Assembly (NCBI GenBank): GCA_947494155.1
Contig: CANLTW010000005.1
Coordinates: 16,793 to 80,792 of the forward strand
DNA from: Chlamydiota bacterium
GTDB lineage: Bacteria; Chlamydiota; Chlamydiia; Chlamydiales; RGXB01
DNA length: 64,000 nt
Direction of reading: 5' to 3'
Shown: positions 57,001 through 64,000 of the stretch, piece after piece
How positions within the stretch are numbered: the first letter of the stretch is position 1
Layout of the letters: every line of letters begins with the position of its first letter
Made by a program: the position numbers

Positions 57001-60000
57001 AAACGAAAATCCTAAAGGTATAGATTCACAAGAAAACAAAGTCCAAGGTTTGGCAAAAGAGCTTTTCGGCATGTTACAAACGGAAGGCGGGGCAGAAGAA
57101 CTCGCAAATTTCTTTTTGAATGCGAAAACCGACTTAATCAATCAGAACTTAGAAATTGCTACGCTTAGAGCTGCTAATACCGGTTTAAAACTGAAAGGCA
57201 CCAGTAGTGAAGTTCAATTAGATATCGCAAAGACTGAAATCGGTAATTTAAAGGAACGTGTAACCTATCTGACTGGTAGGCTCAAAGAAGTTAAAACTGA
57301 TCTGTCTGGTAGGCTCAAAGAAGCTAAAATAGGGGAGTTGGAACGTTCGCTATCAAATGCACAAAAACAAAACTTAGTCTTGAAAAGGTTGATTTTTGGA
57401 GTCGCTGCAGTTGCTGGCGGATTCTTTGCCTATTTAGGTGTGAAAAGGGCTTAAACATTCTCGCCCTTTCTAACCTTTTTTTCAACAAAAGGCCCTGTTT
57501 GTGACGGGGCTTTTTTATTCCCTTCAATGGTCATCCCTTATTTTTTATTTCTATCTTGAAAGGAAAGAGGAAAAGGATCATTTTATTTTGCATGAGTGCA
57601 ATTGTTTGGTTTCGTCAAGATCTTCGTCTAGAAGACCATTATCCCCTTCTTTCGGCGATAAAATTGGGGCGCCCTTTAGTCCTCGTTTACATTTTGGATA
57701 AGACAAAACACTGGTCTATAGGACGTGCTGCCCAATGGTGGCTAGAGCAGTCCCTAAAAGTGTTTCAGGAGTCGATCGAAGAAAAGGGTGGATGCCTCCA
57801 TTTTTTCCATGGGGACACGGAACAAATCATGGAAAAACTGGTTCAAAAACATAAAGCTGAAGCGGTCTACTACGGCGCGAATTACGAGCCCGACGAGCGG
57901 AAAATAGAGCAAAAAATGGAGGCTCTATGTAAGAGGTTGGGTATCGAAACCCACCGCTTTCACCATAACCTGCTGTATAATCCAGAGCTTATTCTTACAA
58001 AAGAGGGGAAACCCTATCAGGTCTACACCCCATTTTGGAACAGAACGCAGCAATTCTCCCAGCCGGAAAACCCTTTACCTGCTCCCCGATCCCTTGAAAA
58101 TTGCCTTAAAGGGGCCTCTGAGCCTCTCTCTAAGCTTCACCTTCAACAAACATGGGATCTTCACCTCATCCCCTCATTGTGGGAGCCGGGGGAAAAGGGG
58201 GCGAAAAAACGCCTTCGGATGTTTGTAGATAGAGGGAGAGTCGAAAATTACGCCCATGATCGGAACTACCCTGCAATTGAAGGGAGTTCTAAACTCTCCC
58301 CCCACCTCCACCTTGGTGAGATCAGTCCAAGGACTGCCTGGCATGCAACTGGGGCCTCGTTAATCTATAGAAAAGAGCTTGTTTGGAGGGAATTTGCAAA
58401 ACACCTTTTATTTCACTTCCCCCATACTACCGATAATCCGCTAAAACCCGAATTCGATGCCTTCCCCTGGCAAAAAAATGCCAAGCTTCTCCATGCCTGG
58501 CAAAAAGGGGAAACGGGCTTTCCGATCGTAGACGCGGGAATGCGAGAGCTTTGGCATACCGGCTGGATGCACAATCGGGTGAGGATGATCGTCGGCTCTT
58601 TTTTAATCAAAGATCTGAGAATCCATTGGTTGGAAGGGGCAAAATGGTTCTGGGACTGCCTTGTGGATGCAGATCTCGCCTCCAATACTCTTGGATGGCA
58701 GTGGGTGGGGGGCTGTGGTGCTGATGCGGCACCTTTTTTCCGCATCTTTCATCCCGATCTGCAGGAGGCAAAATTTGACCCCACCCATGAGTATATAAAA
58801 AAATGGATTAAAGAGCCCTTACCCCGAATCGTCGATCATAAAGAGGCTAGAGAAGAGGCGCTAAAAGCCTACCATTCGATAGTTGCCCACAAAAAATCTG
58901 GCAAGTAACCCTTTTTTGATCCTATAAAGGCCTTCTCAGTGATGCCTTAAATAGAAGTAGTTTTTTTGAGAAACTGCAGGGACAAAGTGGAACCCCAAGA
59001 GATTCGCTGTAGGGCTGATCTGTTTTGCAAAATAGATCTCTTTAAGGGCAGTTAAAACAAATTCCTCGGGCAACCCCGAGACAAAAGGGGTTCCTATTTT
59101 TACAAGCTCCCGGTGATCGTCCAGAAAAGCTTGAAACCATTTCAAGTTTGTATCTATCCCAAAAACCGGCATGCGCAGGTGGCGGCATTGCAGCACATCA
59201 ATACCTGTAAATAGCCTGATATCTTGCCTAGTCTGCTCCAGCAAAAATTCGGGCAAAGGGGCAACGTCTTTGTACAAAACCCCTTTTTGACGGATCACAT
59301 CAAATAGAGGTTGGGGATTTTTTAGAGGAAATAGTGACGAATCGAGCCAGAGCAAATAGCGAAATCCCAAATTTCTTGCCTCCTCAAGCATGAACAGTTT
59401 GAAGGCATAAGGGACACCTGTATAAACCAGTTCTGATTGCGTGGGCTGGGGATACCCCCCCAAGCGGTAGTAGACCCACCCTTGAAATCCCACCTCTTTA
59501 AGAGCCTCAATAAGAGTTAAGAGATAGTGGGGATATATCCGATCATAGGAGGAAAAAAGGACAATACAGTCGGAGCCTCCACCATTGATTTCCACAAGCT
59601 TTTTTTGAGGAAATCTCCCCTCTTTTTGATCAATAAGCGTCTGCCAGACCCCCTTATGCAACCGGTTGAAAAAATCATCATACTTGATCACCTTTTGAAA
59701 AAAATTCCTTGTGTTTTTCTGATCTGCATACCTTTCAGACAGAATTTTATCTACTTTGATCAAACGCAAAGCCTCCTGAAAAGCACCAAGCTCCTCATCA
59801 TTTGGCGTACTTGAGAGTCTAAAATCGGCTAAAAAGGGGTTCGAAAACTCTCGAACTTTAACTATATTTTCTTTTTCGGCAAAAGCAGCCTTACAAAAGA
59901 TCAAAAGGAAAACTATTGAAGAGCAAAAATGAAACATTAGTGGGCCCTTATAATAAATTTACACCCTTTTTTGAGGGCATCGATATAGGAGTTATTATTG

Positions 60001-63000: not shown

Positions 63001-64000
63001 GCCGGACAAAACATACTCCTCGGGAAAGCAGGAGATAAAAGGGAAACCCAAACGCACCATCTCGGTATAGTCTCGAAAAAATTTTTTCGCCCAAGGTGCC
63101 CCCGCGTCCAGCCCAAAAACCCACATCCTAACGTGAGGGCTTTCGGTTAAATCGACCCCTGTAAGGGTTTCAATACTTAAAAGAGTAGAAGGCAAGATAG
63201 AACTTCTAGGGTGACTACGATGCAGTAAAAAAGAGCCCTCTTTTTCAATCCTCTCGAAAAGAGGTAGAGGATCTTTGAATGGAAATAGGGCGCTATCTAA
63301 CCAAATAATCTTATCAAAACCTAGGTTGTGGGCCTCCATCATCATAAAGATCTTAAATGCATAGGGAACACCCGCCCACTTTGCCTCATGCCCGGTGGGA
63401 TTCGGTACGCCTCCAATTCTGTAATATATGTGGCCATCAAAACCAATCTCTTTAAGCCCCTCGATCAAACTCTGTAAAAGGGGGGGGTACTTATTTCCCA
63501 ATGGGCAGCTCACAACAAAGCAGTGTTTACCCCCTTTGTTGATCTTCACGAGGTTTGTTTCGGGATATTGACCCCTTAGAGGGTCTATAAGGACCTGCTG
63601 CATACAGCGGTTTATTCTCCCCTCAAATTCCCCTAAAGGCTTGAGCTCGAAAAAAACACCTATTTTCTGCATATAAAGCTTTTCAAGTGTGCTGTTTACA
63701 TCCTGTTTGCGTAAAAGTGATTGAATGTGAGAGACATCCTCTCTAGTGAGGTTCTGTTTGTCCTCAAAAGGGATCACAAACGGATTTGTTAAGAGGGTTA
63801 AAAATACTGAAAGCAGGAGGGGGCAAAAGGGCATAAAACAGAAGGTAAGGGGTTTTTTAGAATTAGGATATCTTTGTAAACAATTGAAATTCAACCAGAA
63901 GAAGCGTATGGTGAAGTTAATCCACAACTTACTCAAGAAGTTACTTTGGATAAGGTTCCTGATAATGTGAAAGTTGGGGATATGTTACAAGGACAAAATC

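Follow-up and report, generated by a model that had tools for sequence, protein, structure and literature searches.

Introduction

The best structural matches to the protein family described here are GT8 enzymes, namely glycogenin, LgtC, LARGE1 and GlyE (Z 11.3-13.3). The order of the elements is shared: a small residue or Cys on strand 1, an aromatic-x-x-basic helix, and a central strand closed by an acidic residue, where the family reads VLWLDAS and WaaO/WaaJ read VLYLDAD. The family differs from GT8 by an extra N-terminal extension of about 80 residues that starts with NPF, and the identity is 6-12%.

Domain 1 of the PBCV-1 protein A064R is tied with glycogenin as a structural match (Z 12.5, rmsd 3.2 over 179 aa). 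A064R is a three-domain protein made of a GT-A beta-L-rhamnosyltransferase, a second rhamnosyltransferase and a methyltransferase. In the published work, domain 1 attaches rhamnose to a xylose for which A075L is the proposed transferase (PMC9614988). The likeness includes the joining of a GT-A domain to sugar methyltransferases and the action beside the xylosyltransferase A075L; the leader-bearing 4,6-dehydratase/reductase of the genus studied here is also of the kind that makes NDP-rhamnose. However, A064R domain 1 is 8% identical to the family, gives no match in the PDB sequence-profile search, uses divalent cations and works in the host cytoplasm. Rhamnose specificity for the family would be pure analogy. 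A075L itself, the founder of CAZy GT114, is an inverting GT-B beta-xylosyltransferase and is compared here with a neighbouring gene (g00169), not with the array family. That likeness is in sequence and fold; the chlamydial homologs differ by bearing leaders. Passages of the work on A075L count 178 homologs, mainly in viruses and bacteria, and do not name chlamydiae (PMC11571054).

In Chlamydia trachomatis, glycogen is made in the vacuole: host UDP-glucose is imported into it by host SLC35D2, and the secreted glycosyltransferase GlgA is found there (PMC4829429). GlgA sets a precedent for a Leloir enzyme of bacteria that uses a nucleotide sugar of the host outside the bacterial cell, although it is a GT-B enzyme and leaves by type III secretion. 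The effector transferases SetA and LtpM of Legionella, YGT of Yersinia and clostridial TcdA share the GT-A fold; the bacteria that make them are intracellular or toxigenic, and their targets lie in the host. They differ in their lower Z than the GT8 group, the presence of DxD, other secretion routes and a context that is not glycan assembly. In the literature covered, which excluded subscription journals, no paper was found on the family or on exported chlamydial glycosyltransferases.

A five-gene array and its two paralogs

The window analysed is a stretch of 64,000 nucleotides from the genome of a lake-water chlamydia. ORF calls show five tandem ORFs, head-to-tail on the minus strand at 58936-63834:

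W1: 58936-59937, minus strand, 333 aa; family profile match E 4.3e-143, without a Pfam or NCBIfam family
W2: 59937-60887, minus strand, 316 aa; from ORF, alignment and family profile
W3: 60899-61852, minus strand, 317 aa; from ORF, alignment and family profile
W4: 61876-62838, minus strand, 320 aa from a GTG start; from ORF and modelled protein
W5: 62842-63834, minus strand, 330 aa from the ATG at 63834; from ORF and family profile

The genes are separated by -1, 11, 23 and 3 bases, the first value being the 1-base overlap between the W2 stop and the W1 start. W5 is the first gene of the array, which reaches the contig end, so that the region upstream lies off the contig. The W5 frame is open up to 63936 (ORF 62842-63936), and the start at 63834 fits the orthologs of 330-350 aa. 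An alternative ATG at 62832 in W4 gives 318 aa and agrees with orthologs starting MWKG. The closest W3 ortholog is 80% identical. Two homopolymers were seen on the coding strands, a G7 over the invariant Gly-Gly of YYRLGGYP in W1 and a C8 (Tyr-Pro-Pro) in W5.

The array proteins are 32-39% identical to W1, and 54 columns are invariant in the five-protein alignment. When the profile of the five was searched against the whole 1.41 Mb genome, exactly 7 places were found (E 3.7e-158 to 1.1e-64), two of them (C1a and C1b) on contig C1 at 178215-180163. This confirms the seven members counted in the survey's finding. Its claim that the family lacks a curated model was also verified: none of the five array proteins had a Pfam match at E<=10, and NCBIfam gave noise only. 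No contig from four RNA runs extended over most of W1. RNA support for the family consists of short metatranscriptome contigs only, for which carried-over DNA is possible.

Fold and conserved pocket

The AF2 model of W4 (pLDDT 92.6, pTM 0.91) has a GT-A core at residues ~99-320, preceded by an N-terminal extension (~17-98) starting at NPF. In VIA, the top matches were glycogenin (Z 13.3, rmsd 3.3 over 183 aa), A064R domain 1 and the Skp1 galactosyltransferase (Z 12.2). There were 42 chains at Z>=8, and the recognised entries among the 50 best were all GT-A-type transferases. Foldseek found 35 chains at E<=1e-3, with TM on the query of 0.30-0.44. The identity to solved transferases is 6-15%. 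In agreement with the earlier placing of the fold, the best matches include glycogenin, LgtC, UGGT and XXYLT1. The features of the GT-A superfamily, a single Rossmann-like alpha/beta/alpha domain and an acidic residue ending the central strand, were both found. The array proteins and C1a and C1b are very probably glycosyltransferases.

Conservation was counted in 283 family sequences. K161 is present in 282, P157 in 281, D180 in 278, W178 in 277, G241 in 275, C105 in 269 and E272 in 248. The conserved pocket is composed of C105 on strand 1, a GG-x-P-N-P-T-G loop, Y158/K161/E167, W178-x-D180, G241 and P271-E272-E273. W178-x-D180 occupies the strand where other GT-A enzymes carry DxD. The second Asp is found in 0 of the 283 sequences, the position being Ala, Ser, Gly, Arg or other. 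With one invariant Asp (W-L/I-D) and no DxD, the family is therefore not GT8, and the label "GT8-like" given before does not hold on this point. Closeness to GT8 in fold was found (Z: glycogenin 13.3/12.7, LARGE1 11.6, LgtC 11.4, GlyE 11.3). In Pfam GT8 (PF01501), no member scored above the cut-off; the best was P0246 with 18.7 bits vs 24.3, and one of 49 members gave E 0.0059. The GT8 model had no match in 120 Chlamydiota genomes.

In the glycogenin and LgtC structures, a C-terminal His is the third metal ligand. The five array proteins end in R-x-H, and the C-termini of C1a, C1b and the viral members are unlike it. A His is found in this column in only 100 of the 283 sequences, and its role as a GT8 metal ligand was rejected. 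Homology to Escherichia coli WaaO/WaaJ, examined by profile-profile comparison with alignment A2, covered the central strand only (probability 1%, E 0.056) and was too weak to be accepted. NPF as a eukaryotic EH-domain-binding motif was also rejected, with the motif kept in leaderless viral homologs and inside fusions. This conservation, together with its place at the start of a well-ordered stretch (pLDDT 95 for residues 21-30 of the W4 model), indicates that NPF is part of the fold.

Predicted leaders

A Sec signal peptide has a basic n-region, an h-region of about 7-15 residues and small residues at -1/-3. The chlamydial members carry predicted Sec-type N-terminal signal peptides, mostly ending just before the conserved NPF. 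They were judged by rules of our own for hydrophobicity and charge rather than by SignalP, and the same leader rule also flagged Rossmann N-termini such as those of CTP synthase and 6PGD. By these rules, the Sec sequence features were found across 120 leader-bearing members. The median leader is 19 aa and the median h-region 13 (interquartile 11-15), with an h-region of 20 or more in 4. A small residue stands at -1 before NPF in 74 of the 120, and K or R occurs within residues 2-8 in 84. The n-region is more positive than the next 15 residues in 113 (+2.1 before, -1.2 after). The hydrophobic leaders reported earlier are confirmed.

Within the array, the W1 leader terminates in AFA, with the conserved NPF 13 residues further on. 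W3 has a typical leader, MKKTLLITLFFHALWGEAW, followed by NPF. The W2 leader, MLAFFCFASLFFS, directly abuts NPF; the basic n-region is absent in W2, W5 and C1a. Judged from sequence, the array proteins and C1a and C1b are probably exported. In the viral homologs, a stop codon lies 2-13 codons upstream of the first Met, or the domain is placed behind others.

Distribution among chlamydiae and giant viruses

The family is large and unannotated, and it is common to environmental Chlamydiota and giant viruses. It comprises 1196 clusters at 50% identity, with 136 word-indexed matches. Of 300 sampled Chlamydiota genomes, 71 contain it, as do 48 of the 165 genera. In giant viruses, it is leaderless and fused to other glycosyltransferase and sugar-methyltransferase domains. 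These numbers contradict the survey's description of a small group of close kin. Nor is the expansion peculiar to this genome, contrary to the earlier proposal: separate orthologs exist for all five array paralogs, and 7 copies occur in each of 4/4 genomes of the genus. The family was not found in the 29 genomes of family code f4 (1.0-1.2 Mb; taken as Chlamydiaceae). No eukaryotic member was identified among the named clusters, most clusters being nameless.

The scanned flanks of the viral contigs contain MutS domain V in 3 loci, Pox_A22, DUF5767 and DUF5759; we take DUF5767 and DUF5759 to be giant-virus families. In the 50 entries listed from the BFVD viral structures, there was no close named giant-virus member; the best match was an uncharacterised phage protein (E 1.3e-10, TMq 0.54, 14% identity). 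Rooted on a distant chlamydial subfamily, the free tree nests the viral clade (12 rows, support 98) inside the chlamydial sequences. Chlamydial monophyly is nevertheless compatible with the data by the AU test (p 0.618), the constrained tree being better by 6.4 log-likelihood units. Transfer between chlamydiae and viruses in either direction would therefore fit.

Neighbouring genes and fusions

One gene stands beside the C1 paralogs:

g00169: C1:180209-181246; A075L homolog, neighbour of C1a and C1b

The earlier reading of g00169 as RXYLT1-like was replaced by a closer relationship to A075L (GT114). In structure, it matches chlorovirus A075L with Z 22.2 (rmsd 2.9 over 252 aa, 23% identity), and the runner-up has Z 12.3. 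In sequence, a profile match to A075L covers the C-terminal domain with E 7e-19, so that g00169 agrees with GT114 in both sequence and fold. Pfam RXYLT1_C reached only 0.02, in one ortholog of the g00169 family. Leaders were found on 101 of the best 120 matches among chlamydial A075L homologs.

P0157, a fusion protein of the giant-virus clade, has the array's family as its C-terminal half, and its N-terminal half shares 31% identity with g00169 (E 1e-25). In at least 12 genomes, representing 9 genus codes, A075L homologs and the array family are encoded no more than ~6 kb apart. Among 20 long members, fusions above the Pfam cut-off are GT90 (2e-29), GT32 (3.3e-14), Fringe (3.2e-6), FkbM in two proteins and class I methyltransferases; RXYLT1_C and GT11 are below the cut-off. 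Chlamydial neighbours (73 proteins scanned) include FkbM in 3 loci, Methyltransf_24 in 4, GT25 in 2, GT10, GT32 and Wzy_C, and many of these enzymes, including GT25 and FkbM, are leader-bearing too. These data show a recurrent link to glycan enzymes, which in the giant-virus clade takes the form of fusions and in chlamydiae that of neighbouring genes. Porin genes were syntenic only here and at three loci from probable congeners; the porin link holds only within the genus.

Predicted leaders are also present in this genome on UDP-glucose dehydrogenase (UGDH), a 4,6-dehydratase and a reductase. The UGDH leader is found in 3/3 loci of the genus; it is clearly absent in 11 of 13 loci of other genera, and 2 are ambiguous. 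UGDH in two congeners has no alternative start codon, and the dehydratase in some congeners has one beside the Rossmann motif. Other leader-bearing proteins are GT17, GT4, GT2 and a second RXYLT1_C protein, among others, and the rule further flagged an adenylate kinase, an APH-type kinase, a GNAT, a CMAS and two AvrB_AvrC-like proteins. Leaderless RmlB-type enzymes are retained. No UDP-xylose synthase was identified among the epimerase-family matches of the genome. Signal peptidase I and a cluster with GspF plus secretin are present.

Discussion

We lean, with a little better than even confidence in the statement as a whole, towards an exported toolkit of Leloir-type GT-A enzymes that builds glycans. 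The array proteins and C1a/C1b would be nucleotide-sugar-dependent glycosyltransferases with a GT-A fold, exported by Sec and cleaved just before NPF. They may then work outside the cytoplasm, in the periplasm, on the cell surface or, after release, in the host-derived vacuole. The donors would be host-derived nucleotide sugars, or nucleotide sugars remodelled there by the leader-bearing UGDH and 4,6-dehydratase/reductase. Each paralog may add one sugar or linkage of a branched glycan, upstream or downstream of the A075L-like xylosyltransferase. The capsid glycan of chloroviruses would be a parallel, in which A075L provides xylose and the GT-A domain of A064R provides rhamnose on that xylose. 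Candidate acceptors are a bacterial envelope protein, a lipid-linked glycan or a host glycoconjugate.

By textbook accounts, the bacterial periplasm contains no nucleotide sugars, and bacterial nucleotide-sugar transferases are expected to be cytoplasmic for this reason. We infer that host-derived nucleotide sugars would have to reach the periplasm. A wider proposal is doubtful: as energy parasites in the host nucleotide pool, which would let them export both transferases and converters, environmental chlamydiae may hold a complete Leloir pathway outside the cytoplasm, in the periplasm or vacuole, in which exported transferases, NDP-sugar converters (UGDH, 4,6-dehydratase/reductase) and sugar methyltransferases would make chlorovirus-like methylated xylose/rhamnose glycans on envelope proteins, the enzyme set being exchanged with giant viruses of common protist hosts.

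The leaders could also serve secreted effectors, which would pass by Sec and then by type II secretion or vesicles to the host cytosol or membranes and glycosylate host targets with host UDP-sugars, like SetA/Lgt or clostridial toxins. The type II secretion cluster of the genome is consistent with this, as are the leaders on enzymes with cytosolic cofactors (the kinases, GNAT, CMAS and AvrB_AvrC-like proteins listed above). The transferase domains of SetA, YGT, LtpM and TcdA appear in the fold list with Z 8.0-8.5 (SetA 8.5, TcdA 8.0), and SetA is the sole near-threshold match of the PDB sequence-profile search and its best (E 0.27). However, that alignment covers 40 residues only, on a different strand, and Z 8 is clearly lower than the 12-13 of the GT8/GT6/A064R group. 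Pfam TcdA_TcdB has no match on family members. The fusions and neighbours indicate glycan elongation and sugar methylation, typical of oligosaccharide assembly and not of a single host modification, and giant viruses use the same domain without a secretion signal. We regard the effector role as improbable.

Little probability is likewise given to cytoplasm-facing, tethered transferases of lipopolysaccharide or surface polysaccharide, for which the leader would be an uncleaved inner-membrane anchor and the nucleotide sugars the bacterium's own. Bacterial Leloir transferases are normally cytoplasmic (textbook), the genome encodes nucleotide-sugar synthesis (leaderless RmlB, ADP-heptose epimerase, GlgC), and elsewhere the neighbours include GT25 "LPS biosynthesis" proteins and a Wzy_C O-antigen ligase. 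But the h-regions fall short of the length needed to span a membrane, the charge bias predicts a catalytic domain on the outside, and the small residue before NPF resembles a cleavage site. GT25, FkbM, other neighbours and the sugar-nucleotide enzymes of the genus bear leaders as well, which also argues against tethering. Still less probable is that the proteins are not glycosyltransferases, the GT-A fold without a DxD metal site serving sugar-phosphate transferases (Stealth/GlcNAc-1-phosphotransferase), other nucleotidyl-dependent transferases or non-catalytic binders. DxD is absent in all 283 sequences, and the domains of CpsY and GlcNAc-1-phosphotransferase are in the fold lists (Z 8.9-10.0; GNPTAB 10.0/9.2, CpsY 8.9; E 3.9e-4). 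Yet these rank under the retaining glycosyltransferases, Stealth/GlcNAc-1-phosphotransferase has no Pfam match on the family, and the matches include known GT-A transferases that lack DxD and need no metal (BoGT6a Z 11.4, C2GnT Z 9.1). The near-invariant polar pocket (K161, D180, E272/E273, Y158) in 283 diverged sequences argues for catalysis.

For the exported toolkit, the presence of leaders in the chlamydial members and their absence from the viral ones suggests that glycan assembly by chlamydiae takes place beyond their own cytoplasm. The predicted export signals, which hundreds of chlamydial proteins bear, point together with exported partners and sugar-nucleotide enzymes to a glycosylation compartment that depends on host metabolites. 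If this is true, it offers a concrete and testable route to chlamydial surface or vacuolar glycans. The glycan machinery of giant viruses, which is still poorly understood, would be linked to bacterial symbionts of the same protists. For the enzyme catalogue, this would mean a new family of GT-A enzymes and, within GT114, a large branch from bacteria. With the family profile (alignment A2), over 1000 clusters of "hypothetical" proteins could be annotated. The only further names obtained for family members were from Simkaniaceae.

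A tandem array without Pfam or NCBIfam family

The last 5 kb of the window is filled on the minus strand by five head-to-tail ORFs of 316-333 aa, named W1-W5:

58936-59937, minus strand, ORF of W1
59937-60887, minus strand, ORF of W2
60899-61852, minus strand, ORF of W3
61876-62838, minus strand, ORF of W4
62842-63834, minus strand, ORF of W5, with the frame open up to 63936

The intergenic gaps are -1, 11, 23 and 3 bases, and the array therefore looks like one operon. Its promoter side is missing because the window stops at the contig end. The other window paralogs are 32-39% identical to W1, with 54 invariant columns in the five-sequence alignment. 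A profile of the five matches 7 places in the 1.41 Mb genome, and the extra two (C1a and C1b) adjoin each other on contig C1. No Pfam match was found for the window paralogs at E<=10, and their NCBIfam search returned noise only. These data bear out the survey's finding of a tandem family of five ORFs and two C1 copies, outside any Pfam or NCBIfam family.

A same-strand ORF of about 400 aa lies upstream of the tandem array in three relatives (L010:69-1274, L009:265-1467 and L013:90-1295). The single one scanned, L010:69-1274, is an MFS transporter. The equivalent position in the window falls past the contig end. Three consecutive small proteins of 149, 174 and 165 aa are encoded at 55584-56033, 56154-56678 and 56957-57454 (plus strand). 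Each is a long coiled coil with a hydrophobic C-terminal segment, giving the predicted proteins a tail-anchored look; Pfam returned coiled-coil noise only.

Size, range and phylogeny of the family

The survey counted 17 relatives, which is far too low. A word-indexed search found 136 proteins, and none of the 120 listed among them had a Pfam domain; an organism was named in six listed rows, all chlamydial MAGs. An exhaustive profile search found 1196 clusters at E<=1e-3, of which 718 pass 1e-10 and 245 pass 1e-30. In an even sample of the phylum, the family was matched in 71 of 300 Chlamydiota genomes and 48 of 165 genus codes. All four sampled genomes of the window's genus had 7 copies, and none of the 29 with family code f4, taken to be Chlamydiaceae, had a match. 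When 185,579 species genomes were scanned with a pattern, 32 loci were found; the informatively labeled ones were all chlamydial except two labeled Verrucomicrobia. A deeply divergent subfamily without the region of NPF, the conserved motif just after the leader, also occurs in Chlamydiota (four genomes, 50-54% identity to the sequence P0116).

W1-W5 group together in a clade of 21 rows (support 96), and C1a and C1b belong to a separate one. Each window paralog has closer orthologs elsewhere, which indicates that the tandem expansion is older than the genus. Close relatives carry 5-7 tandem copies. One other chlamydial MAG carries two family members as a pair, with an IS605 OrfB/TnpB-type gene (L015:8300-9205) immediately downstream.

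N-terminal leaders

Leaders were called by our own rule on 283 family sequences that are not a random sample: 192 carry a hydrophobic leader at the N-terminus, 47 lack one, 30 are fused or begin with a long N-terminal stretch, and the rest are truncated matches. Leader anatomy was measured on 120 distinct members that bear a leader and have the motif in residues 9-50. These leaders have a median length of 19 aa, with a median uncharged core of 13 residues; a core of 20 or more occurs in just 4 of the 120. Lys or Arg is present in residues 2-8 of 84 members, a small residue immediately precedes NPF in 74, and in 113 the stretch before the core carries more positive charge than the 15 residues past it. 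As judged from sequence, this anatomy is that of a cleavable Sec signal peptide and not of a membrane anchor, and the catalytic domain is predicted to lie outside. W1, W3, W4 and C1b have typical-looking leaders; W2, W5 and C1a have no basic start. The genome encodes signal peptidase I, a GspF gene beside a secretin, and two more secretins.

Predicted fold and conserved pocket

W4 was modeled from a 49-sequence family alignment (pLDDT 92.6, pTM 0.91). Foldseek against the PDB gave 35 chains at E<=1e-3, including UGGT, XXYLT1, BoGT6a, glycogenin, A064R, C2GnT and LgtC, with query TM-scores of 0.30-0.44. A second aligner, independent of Foldseek, gave 42 chains at Z>=8. Glycogenin was at the top (Z 13.3, rmsd 3.3 over 183 aa); next came domain 1 of PBCV-1 A064R (Z 12.5) and Skp1 galactosyltransferase (Z 12.2), whereas effector transferases such as SetA and TcdA reached just Z 8.0-8.5. 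Residues ~99-320 of W4 form the catalytic core, and ~17-98 form an extension covered by few structural matches.

The pocket is highly conserved among the 283 family sequences: K161 in 282, P157 in 281, G134 and G141 each in 280, D180 in 278 (Asn in 4), W178 in 277, G241 in 275, Y158 in 272 and C105 in 269. E272 is present in 248, with Asp in 22 more, and E273 in 226, with Gln in 38 more. D180 lies at the end of the strand which bears DxD in other GT-A enzymes, and this strand is the sole stretch of the family that aligns with E. coli WaaO/WaaJ. An Asp two positions after D180 was found in 0 of 283 sequences, and the terminal His of the window proteins in just 100 of 283; the family thus fails two defining features of GT8. 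It also scores under the cut-off of the GT8 model. The enzymes may work without a metal, as BoGT6a and C2GnT do, or may bind a metal in another way.

Members in giant viruses

IMG/VR yielded 21 family loci in two scans, of which six carry GVMAG names; the contigs are as long as 279 kb. The flanks encode MutS domain V (3 loci), Pox_A22 resolvase, DUF5767 and DUF5759. By gene content, these contigs are read as those of Mimiviridae-like viruses that probably infect algae or other protists. A thymidylate synthase gene (L045:5680-7680) and a chlorophyll a-b binding protein gene (L041:1277-1804) adjoin family members on giant-virus contigs, and the thymidylate synthase is split by an intein with a LAGLIDADG domain.

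The viral proteins either begin a few residues before NPF, with an upstream stop 2-13 codons from the first Met, or are fusion domains within proteins of 535-1169 aa. Pfam on 20 long family members identified the fusion partners GT90 (2e-29), GT32 (3.3e-14), Fringe (3.2e-6), FkbM (two proteins) and class I methyltransferases above the cut-off, and RXYLT1_C and GT11 below it. In a 218-row FastTree, one clade (33 rows, support 99) held all confirmed viral members and nearly all leaderless or fused forms, and a 73-row mixture-model tree agreed on the viral clade (12 rows, support 98). A placement of this clade nested in the chlamydial sequences and one as their sister were not separated (AU p 0.618).

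The C1 locus and its A075L-like neighbor

C1a, C1b and a leader-bearing gene of 345 aa (C1:180209-181246) are flanked by five and three Legionella_OMP porin genes. These eight porin paralogs span C1:171423-185206 (L062), the array being broken by the three glycosyltransferase genes; more copies lie at C1:41515, C1:76674 and C2:150843. The same layout was found in three loci from MAGs taken as congeners, and elsewhere no porins lie beside the family. A link between the family and the porins is putative.

The 345-aa neighbor has no Pfam match. Its family has 1090 matches, with leaders in 101 of the best 120, and occurs in 83 of the 300 Chlamydiota genomes. Its model (pLDDT 90.3) is closest to chlorovirus A075L (Z 22.2; runner-up 12.3), and its profile matches A075L at E 7e-19. 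A075L is the PBCV-1 capsid N-glycan beta-xylosyltransferase and founder of CAZy GT114 (PMC11571054). The neighbor also aligns at 31% identity (E 1e-25) with the N-terminal half of P0157, a protein placed in the giant-virus clade whose C-terminal half is the GT-A family. In at least 12 genomes of the Chlamydiota sample (9 genus codes), no more than about 6 kb separates the two families. At other chlamydial loci, the GT-A family lies beside FkbM and Methyltransf_24 methyltransferases, GT25, GT10, GT32, a Wzy_C ligase and a 2OG oxygenase, and many of these proteins bear leaders as well.

Other leader-bearing enzymes of the genome

The single UDP-glucose 6-dehydrogenase (UGDH; G000:C1:206938-208332, or L070:439-1833, minus strand; E 4.6e-156 to the TuaD model) carries 31 extra hydrophobic N-terminal residues. 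UGDH is present in 163 of 201 genomes of the phylum, and the extension was found only in three loci of this genus; in 13 loci from other genera, 11 proteins have the Rossmann motif at their very start and 2 cases are ambiguous. The UGDH genes of two congeners have no other usable start codon. A 4,6-dehydratase (E 4.9e-93) and an adjacent RmlD-like reductase have similar extensions, and a second RmlB is leaderless. The dehydratase with the leader is a paralog specific to the genus, where 5 of 6 congeners have it; its case is weaker because some copies have an alternative start beside the Rossmann motif.

A crude genome-wide screen of ORFs >=150 aa flagged 150 of 1029, false positives such as CTP synthase among them, and 116 of these were sent to Pfam. 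The leader-bearing set includes ordinary envelope proteins, GT17, GT4, GT2, a second RXYLT1_C protein, a BMT-like protein, DUF6492, short-chain dehydrogenases, a HAD hydrolase, CMAS and GNAT. The GT17-like gene lies at G000:C1:97044-97904 (6.2e-24). Three leader-bearing genes in a row at C10:34187-37009 encode DUF6492, an RXYLT1_C protein above the Pfam cut-off and a protein without family. At G000:C10:549-2209, an adenylate kinase (Pfam ADK 4.3e-29, match from residue 27) and an adjacent APH/choline-kinase-like gene both bear signal-peptide-like leaders. Two adjoining leader-bearing genes at G000:C2:148939-150664 match AvrB_AvrC (1.1e-10 and 1.1e-16), an avirulence-protein family of plant pathogens.

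Proposed role

The family most likely consists of exported Leloir-type glycosyltransferases. They would act in glycan assembly outside the cytoplasm, with the A075L-like xylosyltransferase and sugar methyltransferases as partners and, in this genus, exported sugar-nucleotide enzymes. The analysis itself shows the fold, the conserved residues, the leaders and the linkage to other glycan enzymes; export, donors, acceptors and the link to porins are inferences. The chlorovirus glycan pathway may serve as a model by analogy. In PBCV-1, xylose addition is the step proposed for A075L, after which the GT-A domain of A064R attaches rhamnose, with UDP-L-rhamnose as donor, and methylation follows (PMC9614988). 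Nucleotide sugars of the host are candidate donors for the chlamydial enzymes and, we infer, would reach the periplasm through the chlamydial porins. In C. trachomatis, UDP-glucose is imported into the vacuole, to which the bacterium also secretes a glycosyltransferase (PMC4829429). The literature search found nothing on this GT-A family or on exported chlamydial glycosyltransferases. We class the family as a new GT-A family relative to Pfam, NCBIfam and the literature, unusual in its lineage-wide predicted export signal and its giant-virus connection.

Habitat and RNA

In fourteen DNA runs of freshwater or lake origin, at least 81% of the sampled words of the region were present, and the window's DNA may stem from one of these runs. 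Four metatranscriptome runs from lakes contained short contigs that matched W2-W5 as well as the photolyase gene; of the 31 pieces, 26 were at least 99% alike and the others 95-99%, and they may include carried-over DNA. Two coding-strand homopolymers lie within the array: G7 at window 59455-59461, over an invariant Gly-Gly of W1, and C8 at 63480-63487, over Tyr-Pro-Pro of W5. One RNA-library contig crosses the C8 run, with its length unchanged.
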